This document shows, piece after piece, positions 34,848 through 61,902 of a stretch of 61,902 nt of DNA. The position numbers and the translations under genes were made by a program. The notes beneath the pieces are model-generated. The model was given only the letters and a program-made list of their open reading frames with translations. It was not told where the DNA came from and made no database searches. Numbering within the stretch: position 1 is the stretch's first letter; every line of letters begins with the position of its first letter. This DNA comes from a virus (lineage: Duplodnaviria; Caudoviricetes), in IMG/VR virus record IMGVR_UViG_3300048597_000042, positions 1 to 61,902 of that record, one strand, 5' to 3'.

Positions 34848-36332
34848 TCACGCCCAAGCGTAGCCCTGTGCAACCCGTTTTTCCCCGCCTCGCTGGTTAG
34901 GTACTCCCGCAAACCCGAACCTAATATACAAGCACAGGTACTGCAAGGCGTCAGCGATGTGCGAGTAGGGATTGAGTTTGTCTGGTTTTTCACGGTGCTG
35001 CGCAGAGTTCGATAGCTTGGCGTAACAATACCCCCCAGCAAGAGCCTCTCTAAGCATACGTAGTCTAGGATCGAGTATAACACCGCTAGTCCTATTGAGG
35101 AAATAGTCTACTGCTTCTTTGCGCGTCTGAAAAGCGTTATTGCCTATCGGACGTACCATGATTCCTCTAGAGCGCACCACGTCTAGCGGCGTTCGTTTGT
35201 CAAGACCTGAGCGCCCTCGTCCTGCCGGATCACCAACAGCCTCTATCTTAAACCCATTGTACTTATTACGTAACAGCGGCACTACGTAGTCGTCCATGAA
35301 CGACTCTAAGTCTTCGTTTTCAGGGCTAAACTCATCTAGTATGTGCAGTCTGCCCATTGGACTCAGTTGAGCCGCGACCATTGCTGGGTTTAGCCCCCAG
35401 TCAAACCCTAAAATCAGCGGTATTCCTCGGTTTGGTATCAGTGGTTCTTTAGCTACATGAAGCGATTCTTGATATTGCGGGAACACTGGCAAGCCATGCC
35501 GCACCATGCCGTACTCGTTGCCAAGAAAAACTCGGATTTCATCTTCAGACAGGCGTTTTAGCTGTTCGGTGTAGTAGTCATCCGGTAAATGGCCGAGGTT
35601 TTCTGCTTCAATGTTAGGAGTCCACGTTTTTGTCTCGTAGTCGTAGTACACCGCAGGCGGGTACTTGAACAGTTTGGAGACCTTCGGATTTGGTTTTTTG
35701 TTTTCAAACTCATCGTACAGCCAGTGGCTAGTTCTTGGCGGGTTTGTGTCAGCAATTACGCCTTTCCAAGTCGGTCCATAGAGCCGTTTTCCGTTCGCGT
35801 CTTTAACTGTTTGTGGAAAACGCAGGCGAGTAAATATTCTTTCAAAGATTGCTCGGTTAATTTCAGAGGCTTCGTTCAGCCATGCCCCTGTATATTCAGA
35901 CGAAAGCAGTTTGTTAGCGTCTTCTGGCCTATCAAGCGCCATGAATATAAAACGAGCGTCTATTTTCGTACCGTCTCCGGACGGATGAGGGCAGTTTATT
36001 CGCCCTTCAATGGGGTAGTCATACGTTATTTTACATATCGAAGGCGGTACCCACTTAACAAAGGTCTCAACTGTCGTCGATTCCAGCATTGGATACGTAT
36101 TTCGGACGATTAACCACTTGCTTTCGCGCACGTCGTTGGCGTTTGGCTCTTGCGCTAGTGCACGAAACAACAGTTCCATAACGCAAGCTACGGATTTACC
36201 GCATCCCACAGGGCCAAACAGGCACCGAAAGCCGGCATCAGAGTCGTGGAACTCTGATCCTGTGGGGGTTGCCGAGTAGTTTATGGAGTTTTCGACAGGC
36301 TTTTGCGCTACTGCGTGCTTAGGCTTCGCCAT
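34848..36332 (-). CDS. terL: terminase large subunit
   Basis: Walker A GPVGCGKS, VRNTYPML, Walker B AWLNEA, DTNPP, nuclease GFDWG and HIADALQY. Confidence 0.95.
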   Translation of the reverse strand: MAKPKHAVAQKPVENSINYSATPTGSEFHDSDAGFRCLFGPVGCGKSVACVMELLFRALAQEPNANDVRESKWLIVRNTYPMLESTTVETFVKWVPPSICKITYDYPIEGRINCPHPSGDGTKIDARFIFMALDRPEDANKLLSSEYTGAWLNEASEINRAIFERIFTRLRFPQTVKDANGKRLYGPTWKGVIADTNPPRTSHWLYDEFENKKPNPKVSKLFKYPPAVYYDYETKTWTPNIEAENLGHLPDDYYTEQLKRLSEDEIRVFLGNEYGMVRHGLPVFPQYQESLHVAKEPLIPNRGIPLILGFDWGLNPAMVAAQLSPMGRLHILDEFSPENEDLESFMDDYVVPLLRNKYNGFKIEAVGDPAGRGRSGLDKRTPLDVVRSRGIMVRPIGNNAFQTRKEAVDYFLNRTSGVILDPRLRMLREALAGGYCYAKLSNSAQHREKPDKLNPYSHIADALQYLCLYIRFGFAGVPNQRGGEKRVAQGYAWA

Positions 36333-37205: not shown

Positions 37206-37236
37206 AAAAAACCCGCGCCGAATTCGGCGCGGGTTT
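37206..37236 (-). terminator. intrinsic terminator
   Basis: CCCGCGCCG-AATT-CGGCGCGGG followed by TTTTTT on the minus strand, just after the 37254-37685 gene. Confidence 0.88.
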
Positions 37237-37253: not shown

Positions 37254-37685
37254 TTAAATGCGAACGCCGAGGGACTTCTCGCCGGGAGCCGCTGCGATAA
37301 CGGCAGGCGGTTTGCCTTCAAGCAATGCTTGCTTGAAACGTCGTGCCAGAGCCAGAACAACGCGCTGCCGGTCCGGATCGATCATCGCGCGCCCCTTGAC
37401 GTAGATTTCGGGCTGATTGTCGGACGTGAGTGCATCGGCCAACATCAGCACGAAGCTACGCGGAGCGAGCATTGCGCCGGTCGGCGAACGCGGAAGCTTG
37501 TCATCAGCAGCATAAACCGACGGAAGCCACGCAGAACCGGCCAGGAAGCAGGCTTTGAAACCAGTGTTGCGCGATTCGCCGAGATTGACAGTCTTAGCAT
37601 CGATCAACTTTTGGAGATTGACAGCAAGGTCGATTGGCGGTTCGCCGTCTTTGGTAACGCGGGTGAGAGTAGCGCGAGCGTTCAT
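37254..37685 (-). CDS. isolated hypothetical protein (143 aa)
   Basis: GAGGA RBS; own promoter and terminator; GC-rich third codon positions. Confidence 0.85.
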   Translation of the reverse strand: MNARATLTRVTKDGEPPIDLAVNLQKLIDAKTVNLGESRNTGFKACFLAGSAWLPSVYAADDKLPRSPTGAMLAPRSFVLMLADALTSDNQPEIYVKGRAMIDPDRQRVVLALARRFKQALLEGKPPAVIAAAPGEKSLGVRI

Positions 37686-37726
37686 GTTGACATCCTCAAC
37701 AGCGTGGCGGGATTGCCACGGAACAG

Positions 37727-37754
37727 ACTTTACCAGAACGCGCTAGCGATGCAA
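37727..37754 (-). promoter_or_regulatory. sigma70-like promoter
   Basis: TTGCAT-N16-TAAAGT with an extended TG. Confidence 0.55.
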
Positions 37755-37829
37755 CAGGGAAGCAGAATCCGTTAAGCGTCTGTTCAGGAAGCTGAACCGC
37801 CATGGTTGGCGCAGTGCGCGACTTGTAGC

Positions 37830-38800
37830 CGCCTATAACGTATTACACAATGCACGCATACATATTACGCGTTATCGAAACTATACGGCAAAATTACAGC
37901 GTCATACCAGAAGTGCAGTTCGTCATTCACACACTGTTGCCGAGTCTTCACATTACTTTAATGTAATGCCTAACCGTAGCTGAACGGCGCAAGAGGCTGT
38001 GTAATGCCTATTGTAACTGTAATTGTAATATTTATGCGTCTCTTTTAAACAACAGAAGTGCAGTACAGGCCCGCAACTTGTTGAATTTGTTCAGGAAAAA
38101 ATACATGAACTCAATTTCCCTACACGTTTCCAAGATAAACATTACATTCAGGTTCAAAATAGGCTTAAGGATCAAGTGGTTGGAAAAGTGTAATGCTTAA
38201 AAGTTGGAACACCCCCCTACATGAGCATGAAGTATTTTTCATATGATTTTTTCTTTGTCTTACTTACTATTCTATCTATAAAATTACAATAGACATTACT
38301 GGCCTCTCGGCCTCCAGCCCGCACCACTGCGCACTCGAAAATGAACAAATCCCCCACACTACGCTCATCACTGTAATACCTATTACACTCAACTCTCATC
38401 ACTCCCTTTGCGGCCCAAACTCACCCCGCTCCATCCTGTTGATTTCATTAGCATTCCATCTTCCGCGCCATCCAAGCACCGAACTCCACTTCCTACATCG
38501 TTTTCTGACGCACTCCACTTCCCATTTCCACGCGCTTTTCACACCACCTGCACATCTTCTTCACGCCCGCCGCATCTAACTCATTGATTCTATTGGCTCA
38601 CCCTTCCTCACAACTCTGGACACCTGTCTAATTCCCAATGGAGACCGAACTCGATTGCATCTGTTTGCCTAAGTCGTTGATTTCGTTGAAGTTATAGCAT
38701 TACAGTTCCAACTGGGAAATGGGACCGGAAATAGACTTCACATGAACCATGGACAACCTGATCCCGGCCTAACCCATTGATCTTGAACGCTTTCACATAT
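37830..38800. promoter_or_regulatory. non-coding control region, putative origin or packaging site
   Basis: About 1 kb without a credible ORF; more than 10 (C/T/A)ATTAA-free CATTAC/GTAATG-type repeats in both orientations; six IHF-consensus-like boxes. Confidence 0.55.
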
Positions 38801-38889
38801 TTTTAACGCATTCTTAACGGAATACACGAACCAAACTTCGTGTTACAAAGCGCAACACCTCGCGCGCAGCGCGCGCTCGCGGGGCTGGC

Positions 38890-38923
38890 GTTCAGCCGCC
38901 GTTCAGCCAAGGTCTGGCAGGAT
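38890..38923 (+). promoter_or_regulatory. GTTCAG-N5-GTTCAG direct-repeat promoter 1 (PhoP-box-like)
   Basis: GTTCAG ccgcc GTTCAG, 11 nt ending TGG, then CAGGAT. Confidence 0.65.
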
Positions 38924-38981
38924 TGCGGAGCCAGCCAATCCCTGTATAGGAAACTGTAATACAACCCACAAAGGAGCAGTC

Positions 38982-39236
38982 ATGCGTTTTTGCAATGAAC
39001 GCGTAGTCAAACACGCCACGATTAGCCCAGCTTATGGTAATGACTACTATAGTGAGCAGGACGCAATCAAGGCGTTTATGGACGGGTCTGGTTTTGTGGC
39101 ACACGATATTGACGGTACAGCGTGGATGGGTGCTTACGTCTGCGTAGCGGACTGCGATCTGGACGCGGTTATCGAGCTGCGCTACAATAAAATGAAATCG
39201 GTGACTGTGCTCTCACCCAAAGGAGTAACCAAATGA
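38982..39236 (+). CDS. hypothetical early protein
   Basis: AAGGAG RBS; PAYGNDY motif. Confidence 0.85.
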   Translation: MRFCNERVVKHATISPAYGNDYYSEQDAIKAFMDGSGFVAHDIDGTAWMGAYVCVADCDLDAVIELRYNKMKSVTVLSPKGVTK

Positions 39237-39580
39237 ACTCGCCGACACCTGAAGAGGTCGAACGTGGCTTAACGGACGAACATTTTTATGTTCGTTGCGC
39301 TTGGGTTCGCAAAACAGATTTCACTCCTACACTTGAACAAGTCGAACGCGGCTTAACTGACGAGCATCTTGGCGTTCGTCAGGCTTGGAGTTATAGAACA
39401 GATTTCACCCCAACACCCGAACAAGTCGAACGCGGCTTGACTGACGAACATTGGTTTGTTCGTTACGCTTGGGCTCTTAGGAAAGATTTCACTCCTACAC
39501 TTGAACAAGTCGAGCGTGGGTTGGCCGACAAAGACTGGCCGGTGCATCGAGCATGGCTTCGTAGAGCTGAGAACACATGA
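39233..39580 (+). CDS. 24-residue helical repeat protein (HEAT/LRV-like)
   Basis: About 4.7 copies of TPTxEQVERGLTDEHxxVRxAWxxRxDF; 72-bp DNA repeat. Confidence 0.85.
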   Translation: MNSPTPEEVERGLTDEHFYVRCAWVRKTDFTPTLEQVERGLTDEHLGVRQAWSYRTDFTPTPEQVERGLTDEHWFVRYAWALRKDFTPTLEQVERGLADKDWPVHRAWLRRAENT

Positions 39581-39837
39581 CTAACAGGTTTGTATATCTG
39601 AACGATGCCGGCTGCGTAAGCAAAATATCTTGCCCAACAGACGATTGGGCAGCACTACGCGCATACAGTGCGCTTAAAGATTGTAGGAGACATGTGCGCG
39701 TAGTCGGCGTTATTACGTATCAGATAGGTTCAAATTTCCTGACTAATAGCTCAGACATAAGATCCCGCCATAATTCGAGCTTTATCCGCGCTCACTGGGC
39801 ATCCATAGCTTTCTATCGCACGGAGGTTATCTTCTAG
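39577..39837 (+). CDS. array unit 1 (divergent)
   Basis: 86 aa, ATGA-coupled, Ser/Arg-rich. Confidence 0.65.
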   Translation: MTNRFVYLNDAGCVSKISCPTDDWAALRAYSALKDCRRHVRVVGVITYQIGSNFLTNSSDIRSRHNSSFIRAHWASIAFYRTEVIF

Positions 39838-40058
39838 TGAAGCATTCTGTGCGGTACGTGATATCTAGCTCTCCAATATCTACGGTTGATGCTTGGGCGT
39901 GGTGCAGTGTGCAATGGGAGGTAGGAGGCTCGTGCAGCGGCTGGGTCAAGTTCCACTGCTGTAGTGTAATAGAGATTAGGAAGCAAACACGCACAAACGC
40001 TGGTATTGAAGTAGGAGGTTTTTCTGTGTATGACTCGTCCCGTATGCCCCCGTACTAA
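39837..40058 (+). CDS. array unit 2 (divergent)
   Basis: 73 aa, TAGTG coupling. Confidence 0.6.
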   Translation: MKHSVRYVISSSPISTVDAWAWCSVQWEVGGSCSGWVKFHCCSVIEIRKQTRTNAGIEVGGFSVYDSSRMPPY

Positions 40059-40312
40059 TGAAAATACAAACGAAACCAGAGACAGAGACTAGGATAGTCA
40101 AGCAAGCGCGCGGTACAATTTCGGCTAGTTATCACTTAAATACCACATCTTGCATACTTCGCAACCAGAACCCGTACGCAACAAGGTCTTCAATAAGACA
40201 CGGGCGAACCACTTTCTTTACTTCATGCAGCAAACTTAAGTCAAGCATGGATACTTTGTATGGTTTCTCTTTTGGGTTCGATTTTTTCAATAAGACAAGG
40301 GTGAAGCCGTGA
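40058..40312 (+). CDS. array unit 3 (divergent)
   Basis: 84 aa, TAATG coupling. Confidence 0.65.
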   Translation: MKIQTKPETETRIVKQARGTISASYHLNTTSCILRNQNPYATRSSIRHGRTTFFTSCSKLKSSMDTLYGFSFGFDFFNKTRVKP

Positions 40313-40533
40313 AGTTCGCAGAGCCGATGGCTTATCAAGGCAGATTTTGCTTCGGAGTATCCAAGATAGGCAATAACCAACGATCCAGCGTCCTCGGCGT
40401 ACCGGCTGCTCACATGTCAAAAACAGGCTTTATATCATCGTGCGGGCCCGATATTACGTCTAAGTATGTGGAGCCAGTAGGCCACTACTATGGATATAGA
40501 TGGTTTAGGCAAGCGTGGATACTCTGTCGATGA
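40309..40533 (+). CDS. array unit 4 (divergent)
   Basis: 74 aa, GTGA coupling. Confidence 0.6.
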   Translation: MKFAEPMAYQGRFCFGVSKIGNNQRSSVLGVPAAHMSKTGFISSCGPDITSKYVEPVGHYYGYRWFRQAWILCR

Positions 40534-40766
40534 AGACACTCCATACTACATCGCTCAAGACAGGTTCGCACTCATCTGTTTGTGTAAGAAGTAGAATACG
40601 CTGTGACATAGATGGTAAACCTTTTGCTACTATAAGTAGCCAAGGCAGCGTAGGTCTGATCGCTGTAAAAAATCGATATCATATCTGCGGCCACATTAGT
40701 CTCGGTCGAAACTCCTTCAATCCCGCCCCCGTCTATGGCTATAGAAGGTCTTTGCAGAACGTATGA
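40530..40766 (+). CDS. array unit 5 (divergent)
   Basis: 78 aa, ATGA coupling. Confidence 0.65.
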   Translation: MKTLHTTSLKTGSHSSVCVRSRIRCDIDGKPFATISSQGSVGLIAVKNRYHICGHISLGRNSFNPAPVYGYRRSLQNV

Positions 40767-41035
40767 AAGCTCCGCTTAAAATAGCCCACTATTTAACTTC
40801 AGAGAGTATTTCGTATGTAGGCTTTCACATACACGCCGGCATATATACGAAATGCGCTGCGCATGCTACAGAATCGGCAATATACACCCGCGTCAACCCG
40901 AATACAGAGTCGCGGGTTTTACAAGAAGACATAGGGTCTATTTGTTTAGGCGACGTAGGGCCGTATACACAGGGCCGTAGATTTGACGTAAGCGAGTTTG
41001 ATATCGGCGACAAGGGTGATCGCTATGCCGCATAA
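40763..41035 (+). CDS. array unit 6 (divergent)
   Basis: 90 aa, ATGA coupling; FDVSEF near the C-terminus. Confidence 0.65.
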   Translation: MKAPLKIAHYLTSESISYVGFHIHAGIYTKCAAHATESAIYTRVNPNTESRVLQEDIGSICLGDVGPYTQGRRFDVSEFDIGDKGDRYAA

Positions 41036-41240
41036 GGGCTCTTCGTTTTCTACGAATATGGACGCCTCAAAAGGGTCTTATTCTTCAATAAAGGGGCATA
41101 GGCAGTCTCGCATTCATCATGTAAGTAGTGATGGAATGCATTTTCGTCGCAGCATCGTGCATGACAATTACCGTAGTTGGATAGACAATGAAGTCGTGGC
41201 AAGAATACGCCTAAAGTACAGGTCTACGATAAACCAGTGA
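41025..41240 (+). CDS. array unit 7
   Basis: 71 aa; YRSWID motif. Confidence 0.65.
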   Translation: MPHKGSSFSTNMDASKGSYSSIKGHRQSRIHHVSSDGMHFRRSIVHDNYRSWIDNEVVARIRLKYRSTINQ

Positions 41241-41248
41241 GTAAGTAA

Positions 41249-41473
41249 ATGCGGAAACTTGAAGACTACCGCTCAGGAAGATTTACAGTACTTTTTCTAC
41301 ATAAAATTATGTGGGAGTACGAGACTTCTATATACTGCGGCGTGCATCAAGGGCACTACAATGAGTCTTGGATATCGGGAAACAGAAAAACGTGGTTAAT
41401 TTGCGACGGATTTACTGTTTTTGCCTCTGATTTACAAGGCGACCGCTCACATAGTTGCAGTAGGGTAGTATAA
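41249..41473 (+). CDS. array unit 8
   Basis: 74 aa; ESWIS motif. Confidence 0.65.
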   Translation: MRKLEDYRSGRFTVLFLHKIMWEYETSIYCGVHQGHYNESWISGNRKTWLICDGFTVFASDLQGDRSHSCSRVV

Positions 41474-41474
41474 C

Positions 41475-41711
41475 ATGAAACTCGTTCTCTCAGAAGCGAA
41501 TTGCGGGGCGCTGCATGTGGTCTCGGGCATCACTTACGGGGACGGCACTATCAAGTTCCACAGACATGAGTCCCAAATACAAATAGGCCCAATAACGTCG
41601 TTAGTTTGCGCTAACATAAAAAGTAGTAGGTCAGGCAGCCGTTCATGGATACGATACCGCGATGTCACGCTAGTGCATCTGTGGGAGACTTCGGGTCTGA
41701 TGCATACGTAA
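41475..41711 (+). CDS. array unit 9 (core paralogue)
   Basis: MKLVLS...SRSWIRYRD...LWETSG. Confidence 0.8.
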   Translation: MKLVLSEANCGALHVVSGITYGDGTIKFHRHESQIQIGPITSLVCANIKSSRSGSRSWIRYRDVTLVHLWETSGLMHT

Positions 41712-41730
41712 GATTTCAGAGGTAAGTTGA

Positions 41731-41952
41731 GTGAAAATAGTACTGAGTACAGCTCGCCCGTTTAGCGTAAATAAATTTAGTACTGCTTCCGCCATCAAAA
41801 TAAGTAGAAGTATTATACTTTGCTATTCGTATAGGTCAGCACAAAAATCGCACTGCGGAAGCCATAGCAGATCGTGGGTATCAGATAGGGACCTGTGTCA
41901 GGTTGTCTCCAGTAATGGGCTTTGGGAGTCTTCGGGGATTGGCTACGTATGA
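41731..41952 (+). CDS. array unit 10 (core paralogue)
   Basis: MKIVLS...SRSWVSDRD...LWESSG. Confidence 0.8.
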   Translation: MKIVLSTARPFSVNKFSTASAIKISRSIILCYSYRSAQKSHCGSHSRSWVSDRDLCQVVSSNGLWESSGIGYV

Positions 41953-42170
41953 AACTGATCCTTAGAACGGCCGCAGGTGAGCCGCTGCCGCTGCGCGTGC
42001 GCGGTAGATCGTCCGTGCTCTATTACTCAGATTCTTGGGTGTTTGATGAGAACGGACTTGGATATATGGAAAAGTACTCTACCGCAGATTCCTATTCTAG
42101 AAGCCATATTAACGGTGCAGGTATAGTCAGTTTTAAGCTGATGGAAATATCAGAGGTAGATTGCGAATGA
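41949..42170 (+). CDS. array unit 11 (core paralogue)
   Basis: MKLILR...SRSHI...LMEISEVDCE. Confidence 0.8.
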   Translation: MKLILRTAAGEPLPLRVRGRSSVLYYSDSWVFDENGLGYMEKYSTADSYSRSHINGAGIVSFKLMEISEVDCE

Positions 42171-42385
42171 AACTGATCCTTAAATCAACTATATCTCACG
42201 ACGGCTACTGTAGCTTTTCTCACATAAATACCAAGAGTAGAGTTTCTGTTTGGGCTACTGCGGATAGAAAAAGCTATTCGTATGTAATCAATCACATCCG
42301 GTCTTTTATCGGTTCTAGAGACACTACTTGTCTTGTAAAACACCCAAGAGACAGCCTGCTAGAAATATCAGAGATAGATTGCTAA
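42167..42385 (+). CDS. array unit 12 (core paralogue)
   Basis: MKLILK...RSFIGSRD...LLEISEIDC. Confidence 0.8.
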   Translation: MKLILKSTISHDGYCSFSHINTKSRVSVWATADRKSYSYVINHIRSFIGSRDTTCLVKHPRDSLLEISEIDC

Positions 42386-42598
42386 TGAAACTGATTCTTA
42401 TATACAGCGCAGCAAGCAGAGGAAAACCGTTCTCATCAGCAAGCTACATGTCAGAAAGGCAGAGTTTACGCCGCTTCTGATATACGCAAGTGTAGCAACG
42501 GGCGATCTAGTAGGTCGTGGATCATTTTCGCAGACACGGCGTCTATCCAGCAGTCCGTGGGTTTCTATTTGGAAATCGGATCGGTAGAAAACATATGA
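42385..42598 (+). pseudogene. array unit 13, frameshifted
   Basis: MKLILIYSAAS... in one frame and ...SRSWIIFAD...YLEIGSVENI* in another; 214 nt, not a multiple of 3. Confidence 0.78.
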
Positions 42599-42843
42599 AG
42601 TATATCCTTACAACATGCCTATCTGGTGACGGCATAGCTTTCTCTATATACTATACACTGAACATGCGCGCTAGTATGTCTATTAGGTCTACTATAAACA
42701 CTGGCAGCCGGATTCATACTGCTTCTGAGACCCGCAAAATTAATTACGCGCGACGAAGTAGATCGTGGGTTAGGTCCGCAGATATAGTGTCAGTTGTACA
42801 GGCCGGTTCTCGTCTGCAAATTAGCTCAATAAAAAACATATGA
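42595..42843 (+). CDS. array unit 14 (core paralogue)
   Basis: MKYILTTCLS...SRSWVRSAD...LQISSIKNI. Confidence 0.8.
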   Translation: MKYILTTCLSGDGIAFSIYYTLNMRASMSIRSTINTGSRIHTASETRKINYARRSRSWVRSADIVSVVQAGSRLQISSIKNI

Positions 42844-43079
42844 AATATATCCTTGCAGCATGCCTATCTAATGGCATGGAGAAACGCTCCAACGTTAAAG
42901 TAAGAGACACATTTAATTCCATATCAATGATAAAGTGCGCATCTTCGTTTCACCGAGTGTCTAGATTAAATAAATTTTGCGGAAAACAGTACGATAGGTC
43001 GTGGGCTAGTTTCACAGACACAACAGGCATGCGAGTTTCGGGTTTTCGTTTAGAAATAAGCACGATGAAAGTAACATGA
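42840..43079 (+). CDS. array unit 15 (core paralogue)
   Basis: MKYILAACLS...DRSWASFTD...LEISTMKVT. Confidence 0.8.
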   Translation: MKYILAACLSNGMEKRSNVKVRDTFNSISMIKCASSFHRVSRLNKFCGKQYDRSWASFTDTTGMRVSGFRLEISTMKVT

Positions 43080-43315
43080 GCCTATATCTTGAGGCATTAT
43101 TGATGCGCGAAGCGAAGGCTTCTTCAGAACTGTACATAGGAACTACGCACTATCGTAGAGCAATACTAAAGACTCAACACGCATACCGCACCGTATCTAA
43201 GTTATGCACTCGTGGCGTAAAGATCTACGATAGGTCGTCGGCTGTTTCCACGGATACAGCAAGTATCAAAAGCAGCGGGTTCTGGATTTTAAGGCACTGC
43301 ACGATCATTTATTAG
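43076..43315 (+). CDS. array unit 16 with aberrant C-terminus
   Basis: YRTVSKL...YDRSSAVSTDT matches unit 15, but the EISS end is missing. Confidence 0.7.
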   Translation: MSLYLEALLMREAKASSELYIGTTHYRRAILKTQHAYRTVSKLCTRGVKIYDRSSAVSTDTASIKSSGFWILRHCTIIY

Positions 43316-43397
43316 AACGTGGGTTAGTTTTCGGGATATTGTCGGTATATACGCCAATAGATTCTATGTAGAAATCAGCTCAGTGAAAATTGTATGA
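43292..43397 (+). pseudogene. 3' remnant of an array unit (17)
   Basis: Start-less frame ...RTWVSFRDIVGIYANRFYVEISSVKIV*, ATGA-coupled to the next unit. Confidence 0.75.
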
Positions 43398-43633
43398 AAC
43401 TTGTTATTAGTGGATGCGGAACAAACAGAGGAAGAACTTTTGCCGTGCTGTATATAGTAGGCAAACGCTTTTCTAAGTCTTCAGTAATGGTCGGCCCAAG
43501 AAGTTACGACTGTTCTCAACTGCGAAAATACAACGCACGTCCACGTAGTATATCCTGGGTTGATGTTACGGATGTTGTTGGCATGGAAGTAAATGGGTTT
43601 CTTTTAGAAATCAGCTCAGTGAGAATTGTATGA
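43394..43633 (+). CDS. array unit 18 (core paralogue)
   Basis: MKLVISG...SISWVDVTD...LEISSVRIV. Confidence 0.8.
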   Translation: MKLVISGCGTNRGRTFAVLYIVGKRFSKSSVMVGPRSYDCSQLRKYNARPRSISWVDVTDVVGMEVNGFLLEISSVRIV

Positions 43634-43869
43634 AACTAATTATAAAAAGAGCCGCACCCGCCGATGGAGAAACTTGTTCAAGAATCTGTACGTATTGGCT
43701 CGTATGCGATGAATCAATCATTACCACTAGGCAGATACATAGAGACGCTTGCCGGATACTAATATCTAACACAGCAGCATCGGATAGAACTTGGATACGT
43801 GGCATCGATACTTTAGCCATGCGTTTAGATCGTGGGTTACGGACAGAGATTTCATCGGTGAAAATATGA
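43630..43869 (+). CDS. array unit 19 (core paralogue)
   Basis: MKLIIK...DRTWIRGID...TEISSVKI. Confidence 0.8.
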   Translation: MKLIIKRAAPADGETCSRICTYWLVCDESIITTRQIHRDACRILISNTAASDRTWIRGIDTLAMRLDRGLRTEISSVKI

Positions 43870-44102
43870 ACCCAGCGCTGAAAGAAGGCATGACAGGCTT
43901 TTCTGTAACGATTGAATCTTGGGTTTGTATAGACAAGCGTAAATTCTTATGGACTTCGAGCATAGGTCAACTACATGCGTCTGTCGCTAATGCGCGTTAC
44001 GCTGGGTATTACACGACGTATGTAGGCCGAAGTAAAACCGGTAGTTTTTTAGTTCGTAAGCACAAAACACCTATTATGGTTTGTGAAGTTTCGTGTGTTT
44101 AG
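43866..44102 (+). CDS. array unit 20
   Basis: 78 aa, ATGA-coupled; ESWV motif and C-terminal CEVSCV. Confidence 0.7.
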   Translation: MNPALKEGMTGFSVTIESWVCIDKRKFLWTSSIGQLHASVANARYAGYYTTYVGRSKTGSFLVRKHKTPIMVCEVSCV

Positions 44103-44114
44103 TAGGAGGCTTGT

Positions 44115-44219
44115 ATGCTAGACTTCTTGTGTAGTGTTCTAGGTTTCGTTTTCTACTTTATAGAATTTTTTGTAATGCTAGGGCTAGCACTCTGGCTTAT
44201 GCACAAAGAAGAGTTGTAA
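44115..44219 (+). CDS. 34-aa single-TM peptide
   Basis: AGGAGG RBS; MLDFLCSVLGFVFYFIEFFVMLGLALWLMHKEEL. Confidence 0.65.
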   Translation: MLDFLCSVLGFVFYFIEFFVMLGLALWLMHKEEL

Positions 44220-44225
44220 GCCGCT

Positions 44226-44459
44226 ATGAAAATGATATGTAAGTTCTACATAAGACGCGGATATCGTTTTTCTAAAGTAAACGACTGTAAAGATGTAGAC
44301 ATAATTGGTTTTAGCCACGGAGATTATACGTGGCGGACACGCAATTCGTTTAGAGGATGGGTTTGCCATCTTGACGCCAGAATCACTGACGTAACATCAC
44401 TGCAAATAAATGGAGAGTGGTTTGAATCGTCAAGCATTATCGAATACGATTACTTCTAA
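44226..44459 (+). CDS. array unit 21
   Basis: MKMICK...RGWVCHLD...FESSSI. Confidence 0.7.
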   Translation: MKMICKFYIRRGYRFSKVNDCKDVDIIGFSHGDYTWRTRNSFRGWVCHLDARITDVTSLQINGEWFESSSIIEYDYF

Positions 44460-44469
44460 GGAGATCGCT

Positions 44470-44661
44470 ATGGAAAACACAAGCAGTTTTGTTGTGGTAG
44501 AAAACGAGAGTTCTAACCTTGAGGTGTATCACGCATACGACAGTCTGTCTAAAGCCCGTACGGCGGCAAAGGAAGCCGCTGTAGAATTTCCTGGGCGTGA
44601 GTTTCGGGTCTATGAACTGAAGGCTACATTTTCTGCGGCGATCACAGTTAAGGAGACATGA
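44470..44661 (+). CDS. hypothetical protein
   Basis: AAGGAG RBS; AKEAA..FPGREFRVY motif. Confidence 0.8.
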   Translation: MENTSSFVVVENESSNLEVYHAYDSLSKARTAAKEAAVEFPGREFRVYELKATFSAAITVKET

Positions 44662-47794: not shown

Positions 47795-48925
47795 ATGTAC
47801 AACGAATTTACTAAGGCTTTGTTTGCTGTGTTGCAGATCAACCCTGTCGTGTACGGGTTTTGTAAGCTGCTTCCGTTAGAAATGTCTGAGGACATTCCGA
47901 CTGCGGCCCTCAATGGCCGAGTTGTAAAAATCAACCCAAAATTCTGGAGCGATCTTGATACTGATTCAAGAGCGTTCGTCATTGCCCATGAAGCCATGCA
48001 TATCGCATGGGATTTCTTCGGGCGGTTAGGTATGCGGAACAAGATGATTTTTAATGCCGCACAAGACCTAGTCATTAACGAGTTTTTATCTGCCAACAAC
48101 TTCAAGTTCACAGGCAATTACGATTTAATTACAGCCAAAGATTTCCCTGACTTGCAGTACGACTCTAATCGGCATTCAAGCGAAGTTGTCTACGACTGGC
48201 TTATTCGCAACAGGCCGAATCTCGCGAAGCAGATGGCCGATAAGGTCTTGGATGGTTGTGGTCAAGAACCCCAGCCCGGTGATGGTGGCCCTCTCACCCC
48301 GCAGGAGGTCGAGGATTTGCGTATGGCGGTGCAGGGTGTTATCGTCGGTAGTCCTCCCGGAACGCTGCCTAGCGAGCTTGTACGGGCCGTAGAATCGGCA
48401 TGGGTGCCGGCCCACGACTGGCGCACTGAACTGTCCAGATACTTCAACCAGCTAGCGCCAGATGACTACAGCCTTAAAAAGTTCTCTATGAACAACCTAG
48501 CTGTGACAGGGGCGCTTACGCCTACGTTGAACACTCCCGGCCTTACTACTATCGGGGTTGTCTTCGATACCAGCGGGTCTATGTCAGACCTGTATAGCGA
48601 GGTAGTAGGCCATGTCCAAGAAATACTCAGTCAAATATCCGTGGCTAAAGTCATCCGGATTGACGCCGATACAAACGTCGCCTTTGAAGAAGAGACCACA
48701 GGCCCCGGCCTTGTGGCTACTGACTTTCGATTCCATGGAGGCGGCGGTACTTGTTTCAGAGAAGCTATCCAACGCATGGAGCATTATAGCCCTGACGTGG
48801 TGGTGTATATCACTGACGGTCACGGAACTTTTCCAGACAATCCTCCACCGTACCCGCTAGTCTGGCTCGACTTGTTGGGCACTGTTGAGTACCCATTCGG
48901 GGATGTGGTGCGATGCAAAACCTGA
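47795..48925 (+). CDS. HEXXH metallopeptidase-like plus VWA domain protein (DUF2201-like)
   Basis: IPTAA, FVIAHEAMH, NAAQDLVIN, MIDAS DTSGSM, GGGGTCF and YITDG. Confidence 0.9.
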   Translation: MYNEFTKALFAVLQINPVVYGFCKLLPLEMSEDIPTAALNGRVVKINPKFWSDLDTDSRAFVIAHEAMHIAWDFFGRLGMRNKMIFNAAQDLVINEFLSANNFKFTGNYDLITAKDFPDLQYDSNRHSSEVVYDWLIRNRPNLAKQMADKVLDGCGQEPQPGDGGPLTPQEVEDLRMAVQGVIVGSPPGTLPSELVRAVESAWVPAHDWRTELSRYFNQLAPDDYSLKKFSMNNLAVTGALTPTLNTPGLTTIGVVFDTSGSMSDLYSEVVGHVQEILSQISVAKVIRIDADTNVAFEEETTGPGLVATDFRFHGGGGTCFREAIQRMEHYSPDVVVYITDGHGTFPDNPPPYPLVWLDLLGTVEYPFGDVVRCKT

Positions 48926-49132: not shown

Positions 49133-49208
49133 GGGCCTGTAGCTCAAGGGTTAGAGCGTCCGCCTCATAAGCGGTTGGTTCTCGGTTCAAGTCCGGGCAG
49201 GCCCACCA
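49133..49208 (+). tRNA. tRNA with CAT anticodon, probably tRNA-Ile2
   Basis: GGGCCTG/CAGGCCC acceptor stem, CT-CAT-AA loop, TTCAA T-loop, encoded CCA; C4-G69 and C5-G68 favour Ile2 over Met. Confidence 0.9.
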
Positions 49209-49967: not shown

Positions 49968-50052
49968 GGGGCTGTGATGAAATCGGTAAACATAGCAGAC
50001 TTAAAATCTGCCGGCTCCCGCCTTGAGGGTTCGAGTCCCTCCAGCCCCACCA
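49968..50052 (+). tRNA. tRNA-Leu(TAA)
   Basis: GGGGCTG/CAGCCCC acceptor stem, GCAGA-CT-TAA-AA-TCTGC anticodon arm, long variable arm, TTCGA, CCA. Confidence 0.93.
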
Positions 50053-56921: not shown

Positions 56922-57283
56922 TTAAAGCCAAGCCTAGACCGAAGAATACCCCCAAGCGTGAGCCCAAGCCAACTGTTTCGGAAGCGTTAAACGCGCTTCG
57001 CGAATCGATACCGGAGTTTGACCCTAACGACTATGCACAGAAGCCGCTTCTAGAACTTAATGTCAAAGTTCAGGCGTTTGATTGTATTGCAGGCACAAGT
57101 CCTAACTCGTACGAAGCGGTTTCGATTCAGACCGAAGGCCGAGTTCTTGCTTTGATTAGGCACACTTTTGGCGATGGGTTATGGCGCTGCGAGAATAGGG
57201 TGTACAACACCAAGGAAGCAGCCACCGAACATGAAATGGGGCGCCTTTTAGCTAAAGCATTTGACGACCATTGCATTGTCTGA
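56918..57283 (+). CDS. hypothetical protein
   Basis: ATG at 56918 with GGAG RBS. Confidence 0.72.
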   Translation: MIKAKPRPKNTPKREPKPTVSEALNALRESIPEFDPNDYAQKPLLELNVKVQAFDCIAGTSPNSYEAVSIQTEGRVLALIRHTFGDGLWRCENRVYNTKEAATEHEMGRLLAKAFDDHCIV

Positions 57284-57284
57284 T

Positions 57285-57962
57285 ATGAAGAAGCCGCTCG
57301 CTTACTCGTACAGTCTGTTCAACGCATTTGAAACCTGCCCGCGTCAGTGCAACGAAGTTCGTGTCTTAAAGAACTTTGTAGAACCGGAGACAGAGTATTC
57401 ACGTTGGGGCAACTATGTACACAAATGCATGGAGGACCGTGTAGGTAAGCGGGCGGCGCTTCCTGAGAACGTGCGGCACCTTGAGAGTTTAGCGGCGTAT
57501 TTAGAATCGTTACCGGGTACTAACTATGTGGAGCTTGCTTTAGGTATCGACGAAGATTTTGCGCCGGTAGACTTTTTTGCAAAGAACGTATGGTTCCGGG
57601 GTAAGGTAGACTTACTTCATAAAGAACCGTGTCAGACTATTGGCACAGCCTACGACTATAAAACAGGTAAGCCAGTTAAAGATTCAGTTCAACTAATGGA
57701 CATGGCTTTGCTCTCATTCATCCACTATCCGGAACTTGAGACTATCAAAGCTGTTTTTGTATTCTTGAAATTCGACGACGTAGCTACGGAAGTGTTTAAA
57801 AGAAGCGACATGCCGCATATGATGGACAGTTTAATGCAAAGAACTAAAGCCTTCAAGAAAGCGTTTGACAGCAATACTTGGTACCCAAGACCCAGCGGAC
57901 TATGCAAGAGGCATTGCGTCGTTACGACTTGCGAGTACAACGGAAGAAGGACACCGCTGTAG
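57285..57962 (+). CDS. PD-(D/E)XK exonuclease (RecB/Cas4-like, Cys cluster)
   Basis: SYS..AFETCP, GNYVH, RGKVD, DYKTGK and LCKRHC...C. Confidence 0.9.
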   Translation: MKKPLAYSYSLFNAFETCPRQCNEVRVLKNFVEPETEYSRWGNYVHKCMEDRVGKRAALPENVRHLESLAAYLESLPGTNYVELALGIDEDFAPVDFFAKNVWFRGKVDLLHKEPCQTIGTAYDYKTGKPVKDSVQLMDMALLSFIHYPELETIKAVFVFLKFDDVATEVFKRSDMPHMMDSLMQRTKAFKKAFDSNTWYPRPSGLCKRHCVVTTCEYNGRRTPL

Positions 57963-60808: not shown

Positions 60809-61902
60809 ATGGACTTTTTTGAATCTGTATTGCCCACGAAGGGCTTGTATTGCCTTGCAAGTGCTACATACAATAGGCTACTTAAGAACCTGTCTAATGT
60901 AAAGCACTATAAGTTCAACACGCTCCAAGAACTTGTAGAAGGCGCTAACGAACTTATACGTACAAACGACGGCTTAGAGCTGTACGTATCACCTAGCTCA
61001 TACGCTACGTGTAAGACTCCCAACAAAGGGTTTCGCGCGTCGAAGAACTGTGCGTGGGTGAAAAGTCTGTTTATCGACGTAGACATTAGGTCGCTTCCTC
61101 AGTATTGCCAGTCAGTAGAAGAAGCTCTAGAAGAGCTTAATAAACTGTGCGCTAGTACTAACTGGCCTAGCCCTTGGGTAATCAACTCGGGTGGGGGTCT
61201 GCACTTATATTGGCCTCTTACAGAAGATACTGAGCCAGAAGCATGGCACAGTATGGCTACAAAATTTCTAGACGTTGTAGCTACGTACGCTCCAAAACTG
61301 GTTGCGGATTCTGCTCGGACCAAAGACCGCGCCGCTCTATTGCGTTTGCCTGCTTCGTTCAACCACAAGCGGCTTCCCCCTACCCAAGTCCAGATAGTAT
61401 CAGAAGCTACTGGCACCCTCGATCCTTCGATACTCGACTCCGATCTTGCAAGGCGGCTAGAAGTAGACCGCGAGATACCATGCGGAGAAGTCAAGGATAA
61501 AGATAAAATCCACATTGACGATGTAGTTACTTCGTGCAATTGGATGCGCCAGTACGTAGAAAACCAAGAGAACGCATCAGAGCCGGAGTGGTACGCGGCT
61601 ATGTCTCTTGCGCGGTTTATATACATCGACCACCCGTCAGAGAAAGCTAACACTGCGGGCGTTGCTCTGTCACTTGGGCATCCGGGCTATTCACCGTCTG
61701 GAGTTGAGAAGAAGATAGCTCAACTAGAAAAGCAAGCTATAGGGCCTGCTACATGCCATCGGCTTAGCGGTATGTTCCCTGAGCGCTGTAGAGGCTGTCC
61801 TTTACGAGGCATGGTCAACAGTCCGATAGCCGGAGCTAGAAAGGTTTCCAAATCGGACCCTTTAGATATAAATGCCCTGTTTGCTTCAAACTCAGGGTAT
61901 TA
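60809..61902 (+). CDS. N-terminal part of primase-helicase (AEP/RepB-like primase and Cys-rich domain); continues to 1916
   Basis: Open frame translated by hand: LFIDVD, INSGGGLHLYW, LRLPASFNHK, SEPEWY and CHR..C..CP; missed by the ORF track because no stop occurs before the window end. Confidence 0.9.
   Translation, partial: MDFFESVLPTKGLYCLASATYNRLLKNLSNVKHYKFNTLQELVEGANELIRTNDGLELYVSPSSYATCKTPNKGFRASKNCAWVKSLFIDVDIRSLPQYCQSVEEALEELNKLCASTNWPSPWVINSGGGLHLYWPLTEDTEPEAWHSMATKFLDVVATYAPKLVADSARTKDRAALLRLPASFNHKRLPPTQVQIVSEATGTLDPSILDSDLARRLEVDREIPCGEVKDKDKIHIDDVVTSCNWMRQYVENQENASEPEWYAAMSLARFIYIDHPSEKANTAGVALSLGHPGYSPSGVEKKIAQLEKQAIGPATCHRLSGMFPERCRGCPLRGMVNSPIAGARKVSKSDPLDINALFASNSGY
61776..61902. 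repeat. 127-bp direct end overlap (right copy)
   Basis: Identical to 1-127. Confidence 0.97.

Follow-up and report, generated by a model that had tools for sequence, protein, structure and literature searches.

The IMG/VR virus record IMGVR_UViG_3300048597_000042 (Duplodnaviria; Caudoviricetes), analyzed here over its full 61,902 nt (the window), carries at the start of its rightward early/replication operon an array of very small, mostly overlapping genes, which form a family of tandem paralogues in which concerted evolution is patchy. At least 12 members were recognized (41475-43869 and 44226-44459), comprising ten open reading frames (ORFs), one frameshifted unit, and one C-terminal remnant. 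The copies are old: saturation has been reached at synonymous sites and in the interiors, and of the protein sequence only three short motifs are still conserved. Three pairs of short patches that span neighboring gene junctions are nearly identical in DNA. We consider it fairly probable that the array is an old tandem family of coupled mini-genes in which short-tract recombination between neighbors has recently homogenized these junction patches. The initial annotation had described the region as a repeat/spacer-like array whose conserved junctions could let whole cassettes be gained, lost, or swapped; that description overstated its regularity, and what we found is an array of protein-coding paralogues with three different junction sequences. 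The array and its flanking ORFs, all on the + strand, are as follows.

39577-41473, + strand: eight ORFs of 73 to 90 codons, mostly with 4-nt or 1-nt stop/start overlaps; odd composition like that of the family, profile E >= 1
41475-41711, 41731-41952, 41949-42170, and 42167-42385, + strand: family units 1 to 4 (profile E 1e-25 to 6e-17; alignments A1 to A3)
42385-42598, + strand: broken (frameshifted) family unit, from the three-frame translation and a profile match to its C-part
42595-42843 and 42840-43079, + strand: family units (profile E 1e-24 and 4e-32)
43076-43397, + strand: unit with a degenerate C terminus (ORF 43076-43315), then an out-of-frame C-terminal remnant (43293-43397; profile E 3.5e-8)
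43394-43633 and 43630-43869, + strand: family units (profile)
43866-44102, + strand: ORF of the same size, not significantly a family member (profile, shuffle test)
44115-44219, + strand: hydrophobic 34-codon ORF with an AGGAGG site (ORF and junction reading)
44226-44459, + strand: outlying family unit, the last of the array (profile E 3e-16)

A profile built from the ten open ORFs (alignment A2) and run against the six-frame translation of the window recovered these ten and two pieces outside the training set: the C-part of the frameshifted unit (42395-42595; profile positions 29 to 77, E 1e-9) and the orphan C-terminal third (43293-43394; positions 47 to 78, E 3.5e-8). Nothing else in the window matched at E < 0.4, and a repeat run reproduced the result. 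The 12 matches lie head to tail on one strand, as members of a tandem paralogous gene family. The units measure about 72 to 82 codons and share an N-terminal MK[LY][IV]L, a mid block RSW[VI]..D, and a C-terminal G..LEISS[VI]K[IV], at pairwise identities of 13 to 33%. Nine neighboring ORFs of the same size (the eight at 39577-41473 and the one at 43866-44102) may be older members diverged beyond recognition; in a shuffle test, four of the eight scored weakly above their own shuffles (39577, 18/300; 40763, 7/300; 40998, 16/300; 41249, 19/300). The array thus holds 12 to 21 coupled mini-genes and makes up about 8 to 9% of the genome. One of the flanking ORFs, 40058-40312, contains an 18/20 direct repeat (40189-40208 and 40286-40305, 97 nt apart).

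Small ORFs tile the + strand from 38982 to 44459. Frames of at least 60 codons (n = 21) cover 98% of the + strand between 39577 and 44102, against a mean of 31% and a maximum of 57% in 500 shuffles, none of which reached the real value. The first 20 junctions include 14 4-nt (A/G)TGA overlaps, three 1-nt overlaps, one 11-nt overlap, and gaps of 1, 8, and 19 nt. Canonical AAGGAG/AGGAGG sites occur only at the first two genes of the operon and then at 44115 and 44470, and translation of the mini-genes probably depends on termination-reinitiation, as judged from this arrangement.

The age of the copies is evident from Nei-Gojobori counts summed over 45 pairs, where pS and pN are the proportions of synonymous and nonsynonymous differences: pS was 0.745 in the conserved blocks and 0.748 in the rest, close to the 0.768 of random codon pairs, whereas pN was 0.470 in the blocks, 0.649 in the rest, and 0.734 in random codon pairs. 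Among pairs of units that are not neighbors, the same codon was used at conserved residues about as often as expected in the RSW block (37/128 versus 37.4 expected) and at the C terminus (30/95 versus 30.3) and slightly more often at the N terminus (37/75 versus 26.1). With synonymous sites saturated and codon identity at expectation in non-neighbor pairs, the likeness of junctions across the whole family can be ascribed to purifying selection on the protein termini. Purifying selection had been named from the outset as the alternative to exchange, and it holds for the family at large; it does not hold for three particular pairs of junctions.

42144-42182 and 42362-42400, + strand: junction patch A, 36/39 identical, direct repeats flanking unit 42167-42385
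42585-42625 and 42830-42870, + strand: junction patch B, 36/41 identical, direct repeats flanking unit 42595-42843
43369-43401 and 43605-43637, + strand: junction patch C, 32/33 identical, direct repeats flanking unit 43394-43633

All three pairs had been reported before, the second only approximately (near 42589 and 42834), and each does span a stop/start overlap; their spacings of 236, 218, and 245 nt agree with the period of about 220 to 245 bp given then. A self dot plot of 38900-44600 contained 568 windows with at least 21/30 identity, compared with 2 to 18 in five shuffles. The earlier statement that the best-conserved DNA lies at the junctions is right insofar as the three patches form the top diagonals within 41475-44459 (29, 28, and 27 of 30), but an interior block is conserved too: the DNA of the RSW block, TAG(A/G)TCGTGGG(T/C)TA..., is present in six copies that are 68 to 100% identical over 25 nt, and with up to two mismatches it has four + strand matches in the array versus 0.26 expected in the whole window. 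A common junction repeat was not found among the 11 junctions averaged, one of which had been entered off register by one base (42386, not 42385); mean pairwise identity exceeded about 65% only at ATGAAA and a few scattered positions, and the three pairs are three different sequences. A repeat/spacer organization like that of clustered regularly interspaced short palindromic repeats (CRISPR) does not describe this region, which has three junction sequences with two good copies each and open frames over 98% of the array.

Within the three patches, the codon is identical at 25 of 27 conserved residues (Met and Trp excluded), versus 10.1 expected from the codon usage of the genome; by patch, the counts are 9/10 for A (3.9 expected), 8/9 for B (3.5), and 8/8 for C (2.7). 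Of the eight codon differences inside the patches, six are nonsynonymous or nonsense and two are synonymous. The interiors are variable, as had been claimed: between units that share a patch they are no more alike than shuffles (z = 0.2, 0.7, -0.5, and -0.7). The boundary of patch C, counted by eye, is sharp, with 3/6 conserved residues upstream using the same codon (about 2.4 expected) against 8/8 inside. EISSV, for example, is encoded as GAA ATC AGC TCA GTG in unit 43394 and as GAG ATT TCA TCG GTG in unit 43630. Units 42840 and 43076 share a fourth patch, located in their RSW block, with 6/8 identical codons versus 2.7 expected and an interior z of 4.0. The excess of codon identity, the protein-changing differences, and the shuffle-level interiors together indicate that the three patches are recent short recombination tracts.

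We find it hard to credit that selection without recombination, acting on the protein termini and on coupling signals (start context and Shine-Dalgarno-like GTGA/GAGGT in the last codons), produced these patches. Such selection accounts well for the family-wide pattern, in which the termini are conserved as protein with saturated synonymous sites and ATGAAA is nearly universal at starts; reinitiation probably matters, as most junctions have a 4-nt overlap and no canonical AGGAGG, and the junction windows tend, if at all, toward less structure than their shuffles (folding z from -0.24 to +2.16, mostly positive). It leaves the pair-specific identity unexplained, and most differences in the patches alter the protein. 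Selection for coupling cannot explain the patches, since each of the three pairs has a sequence of its own and the codons for the same motif are different in other units. An RNA element was likewise considered and rejected; the only Rfam matches were two tRNAs, and folding z for units and junctions ranged from -1.7 to +2.2.

Young patches in an old array need DNA exchange, and from the sequence pattern we infer gene conversion or template switching during replication. The family, at least 12 units at the head of the rightward early/replication operon, descends from a single ancestral gene of about 75 codons. The copies have diverged to saturation, with the three protein motifs keeping the DNA of neighbors partly alike, and short-tract recombination between neighbors, by either of these routes, would have homogenized the three pairs of adjacent junctions and the one interior RSW block. 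The near-identical patches of 33 to 41 nt would be the products of this short-tract exchange. Sloppy recombination of the same kind may also have damaged the array, leaving a frameshifted unit, a truncated unit with an orphan remnant, and an RSW block copied out of frame.

The initial annotation had proposed a more active role for the junctions, in which the patches are working sites and exchange between them excises, duplicates, or inserts units, possibly via small circles, with frame and coupling kept. Units 42167, 42595, and 43394 are indeed each flanked by direct repeats of 33 to 41 nt with 88 to 97% identity that reaches synonymous sites, which is the topology of a Campbell-type insertion and a substrate for precise excision; the whole block is missing from related phages, and mini-circles formed by recombination between flanking conserved elements are described for phages RB49 and phi1 by Arbiol et al. 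(2010; PMC2839356). The exonuclease/single-stranded DNA-binding protein pair invoked as the machinery is present in one half: a PD-(D/E)XK exonuclease is encoded at 57261-57962, but no single-stranded DNA-binding protein was seen among the window proteins scanned, a scan that was not exhaustive. We nevertheless regard shuffling of this kind as unlikely. No whole-unit duplication, deletion, or swap is visible, and no two units have similar interiors, which speaks against recent duplication; no donor array was found in 1.84 billion representative proteins, 50,697 phage records, or pattern scans of IMG/VR; the junction sequences differ between pairs, so that most junctions would be unable to recombine with one another; and the scars at 42385 and 43076/43293 are out of register and break frames. 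That the units are self-shuffling cassettes with sites inside their overlapping coding termini, their interiors being near-random, fast-turnover peptides that serve as a trial ground for counterdefense or injected proteins, seems to us quite improbable. No reverse transcriptase (sought with the idea of targeted mutagenesis like that of diversity-generating retroelements) was found among the proteins scanned, and no dedicated search for one was made.

The scars themselves record events out of register, as opposed to clean exchanges between junctions. At 214 nt, unit 42385-42598 has a length that is not a multiple of 3; the frame of its N-part stops at 42480, and a different frame is open through its C-part, which has both the RSW block and the C-terminal motif and still overlaps the following gene by ATGA. 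Unit 43076 has lost its C-terminal motif and together with the remnant occupies 318 nt instead of 236, and the remnant (43293-43397) matches the C-terminal part of unit 43394 with 72% identity over 109 nt. The 14-mer TAGATCGTGGGTTA of the RSW block is identical at 42759, where it is in frame, and at 43826, where it is not. This out-of-frame copy (43826-43850) lies near the 3' end of unit 43630 and leaves the 236-nt period unchanged; its origin is explained by none of the ideas considered. The record is metagenome derived, and collapsed or chimeric repeats might in principle have produced the array, with the two frame-breaking lesions as errors. We consider such an artifact exceedingly improbable, as repeat collapse would require far more similar units, the tiling and coupling of the ORFs stay regular across 5 kb, and the shared patches are just 33 to 41 nt long.

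Several points weigh against an old family with recent short-tract homogenization. Protein motifs of 5 to 8 residues offer less initial homology than gene conversion normally requires, and the placement of tracts mainly at junctions is explained only qualitatively. The patches were chosen as the most similar stretches, which makes P values for them post hoc, and the two broken units could be assembly errors. The proteins, moreover, look barely protein-like: their composition correlates more strongly with what the array's own DNA gives when translated at random (r = 0.83) than with the long genes of the phage (r = 0.49), their codon-usage scores run from -0.04 to 0.22 bits per codon compared with 0.32 +/- 0.075 for long genes, and two AlphaFold2 runs gave a mean predicted local distance difference test score (pLDDT) of 43.3 and 45.3, with an ESM Atlas model at a pLDDT of 0.35 and no usable look-alike. 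In view of composition, codon score, and pLDDT, a function at the protein level is putative. Rich in S, R, I, C, H, Y, and W and poor in A, P, Q, E, and L, the proteins are mostly basic (isoelectric point above 7.5 in 17 of the 21 array-region ORFs examined); GC content is about 43% in core units and about 50% in long genes, and the mRNA strand has little C (C 19.8%, G 23.3%).

These properties raise the question of whether the array is translated filler, that is, ORFs that make no folded proteins and stay open and coupled only to keep the mRNA between the early promoter region and the replication genes covered by ribosomes (which might, for instance, prevent transcriptional polarity), with the motifs as relics. 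The near-random composition, the weak codon-usage signal, and the C-poor mRNA strand would fit, as would strong selection for openness in genes that have no confident fold and no homolog. We hold this to be highly doubtful, since pN in the blocks (0.47) is well under both pS (0.745) and the random value (0.73), indicating that some residues are under protein-level selection; relatives manage without the block, so that filler is not needed and its retention would be unexplained; and the array persists although two breaks leave 79 to 115 nt untranslated. As for the old tandem family that we favor, its position at the head of the early operon, its variability and fast divergence, and its absence from relatives suggest that the units are probably dispensable early proteins for host takeover or counterdefense.

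Relatives were represented by four loci (L001 to L004) on three kinds of contigs, with 63 to 65% identity in the ATPase and 83% in the terminase. The array is absent from all four: the family profile matched none of the four related records, one of them a complete genome of 54.2 kb, with the window itself as the positive control. In these loci, the regulatory region is followed by an apparent counterpart of gene 44470-44661, either directly (L003 and L004) or after unrelated genes (L001 and L002); this correspondence, between 44470-44661 and ORFs of 64 to 65 amino acids, was judged by eye from translations, without alignment. L001 and L002 have a hydrophobic 70-amino-acid ORF at the place of 44115-44219, a likeness seen by eye only. 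Where the array would lie, at the beginning of the early operon, both carry a gene for a P-loop (GSGKT) protein of about 163 amino acids (1734-2225 in L001; about 3398-3650 in L002, where it seems to be disrupted). Because the P-loop gene stands there in these two loci instead of the array, the start of the early operon is a variable slot, and because the block 38982-44459 is missing from all four loci, it can be regarded as lineage specific and dispensable for this phage type. In the more distant phage KPP25, the early region is unremarkable; its genes vary in size, and it holds nothing comparable to the array. The parts of the window that frame the array are as follows.

37700-38981, no strand: noncoding region of about 1.3 kb between the leftward and rightward gene blocks, with no ORF of at least 60 amino acids with a plausible start
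38982-39580, + strand: first two genes of the rightward operon (84 and 115 amino acids), with AAGGAG sites, outside the family, with sub-threshold HEAT-like matches only
44470-44661, + strand: first gene with an apparent counterpart in related phages (ORF translations by eye); right end of the lineage-specific block

The 115-amino-acid gene (39233-39580) consists of four copies of an 84-nt (28-amino-acid) tandem repeat that are 79 to 81% identical in DNA, and it has no counterpart in the related loci examined.

Homologs outside the window were not found. Searches of Pfam and PHROGs with the 10 units gave nothing below E 0.05. A word-indexed search of 5.8 billion proteins returned only seven of the window's own proteins, and an exhaustive HMMER search of 1.84 billion representative proteins returned the window's own 10 and three foreign matches, with no credible homolog. 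Two of the foreign matches (P0008 and P0013) were rejected as perfect or near-perfect tandem-repeat translations in which many weak stretches had been summed, and the third (P0012) as a giant protein with immunoglobulin (Ig)-like repeats (hhalign probability, 2%). A bacterial Ig-like (Big_2) domain was rejected as well: there was no Pfam match at E <= 1, hhalign against the Big-repeat protein P0012 gave the same 2%, and the AlphaFold2 models were too poor for a fold search. Neither blastn nor tblastn gave a match among 50,697 phage records, and nothing was found by IMG/VR scans with one unit, with the junction C pattern, or with the neighboring 185-amino-acid gene, or by a scan of genome contigs with the ATPase. 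The gene family has not been seen before; the kind of gene-family evolution is ordinary.

Concerted evolution by short-tract gene conversion leaves patchy identity in selected segments and affects neighboring copies most. The array is alike in that its identity is patchy, lies among neighbors, and falls in segments kept by selection; it differs in that its tracts are unusually short and run across the overlapping stop/start codons of separate genes. The internal proteins (IPs) of T-even phages diverge widely from one another but have in common a short conserved leader at the N terminus, which targets them to the capsid; they are packaged into the virion and cleaved by a prohead protease, and their codon usage is atypical. 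Their loci are clusters of small genes that differ between phages, to which the mostly basic array proteins with their conserved 5-residue N terminus bear some likeness. However, the array units have no sequence similarity to any family, they are conserved also in the mid block and C terminus, and related phages lack the array locus instead of having alternative genes. In PMC2839356, which describes work on the IP loci by Repoila et al. (1994) and Comeau et al. (2007), IP-associated elements are suggested to underlie the plasticity of these loci.

The closest parallel to the proposed shuffling is provided by the promoter-early stem-loop (PeSL) elements of the T4-type phages RB49 and phi1, which, according to Arbiol et al. 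(2010), flank ORFans and through recombination cause genes to be lost or inserted and give rise to mini-circles. Both systems have short conserved sequences as direct repeats that flank single small ORFs in the early region, and the PeSL ORFans are portrayed there as nonessential and their region as hyperplastic. PeSLs are intergenic, about 100 bp long, and composed of a sigma-70-like promoter and a terminator stem-loop, whereas the array repeats are coding termini over a 4-nt stop/start overlap; 17 of the first 20 junctions overlap by 1 to 4 nt, and no promoter-like or terminator-like site was found at the three junction pairs. In addition, the ORFs that the array repeats flank are paralogues of each other, and neither a shuffling product nor a circle was observed. 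If the array did shuffle itself, it would be a counterpart of PeSL or integron cassettes with its exchange sites embedded in coding sequence. Integron cassettes offer no closer match: none of the nine inverted-repeat pairs found lies at a junction pair, as attC-type sites would, and no integrase was found among about 40 proteins scanned, a scan that was not exhaustive. In T4, recombination at short homologies amplifies or deletes genes, according to Srikant et al. (2022; PMC9391042). The genomic accordion of T4 and poxviruses, which operates under selection from host defense, resembles the array in producing tandem head-to-tail copies from short-homology recombination, copies that would be expected to diverge later. 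Accordion copies are young, nearly identical, and variable in number, whereas the array is old (pS of 0.75, about the random value, and interior z of about 0) and only its patches of 33 to 41 nt are young.

The reading frames of the array are clearly maintained, even though no homologs were found in 1.84 billion representative proteins and no fold is predictable. If the ORFs are made and used, they would constitute a new family of early phage proteins and a clean natural case of tandem copies at saturation in which short tracts keep the borders compatible. If the borders are active exchange sites, the idea of targeted modular shuffling developed for PeSLs would extend to sites inside coding sequence. 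As the evidence stands, the array is a well-documented case of unsurprising paralogue-array evolution.

The genome in which the array lies is recorded as complete, with direct terminal repeats and a completeness rating of 100%. An exact 127-nt direct repeat joins its ends (1-127 and 61776-61902), which gives a unique length of about 61.8 kb and looks like the overlap of a circular assembly. A primase-helicase gene is split across the contig ends (60809-61900 and 3-1916) and spans this repeat. Structural and packaging genes, including the large terminase (34848-36332), a portal/adaptor-like protein, and an ORF of 2,106 amino acids, are on the - strand, and the early/replication block on the + strand encodes an ATPase, an HNH endonuclease, two tRNAs, a helicase, a PolA-type polymerase, the PD-(D/E)XK exonuclease, the primase-helicase, and a ligase. 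The nearest named phages, KPP25 and Rhizobium phages of the RHph_TM group, are distant, with 32% identity in the polymerase. The 1.3-kb noncoding region that precedes the early operon contains all four + strand copies of TGTAAT(G/A)C(C/T)TA in the window (37962, 38000, 38189, and 38372), which are candidate regulatory or promoter sites. On the - strand, a strong terminator-like hairpin (12 pairs, 9 of them G-C, then a T run) lies at 37209-37236, just 3' of a leftward gene for 143 amino acids (37254-37685). Downstream of the HNH endonuclease gene (47795-48925), the two tRNA genes, tRNA-Met (CAT) at 49133-49208 and tRNA-Leu (TAA) at 49968-50052, are situated among small ORFs.

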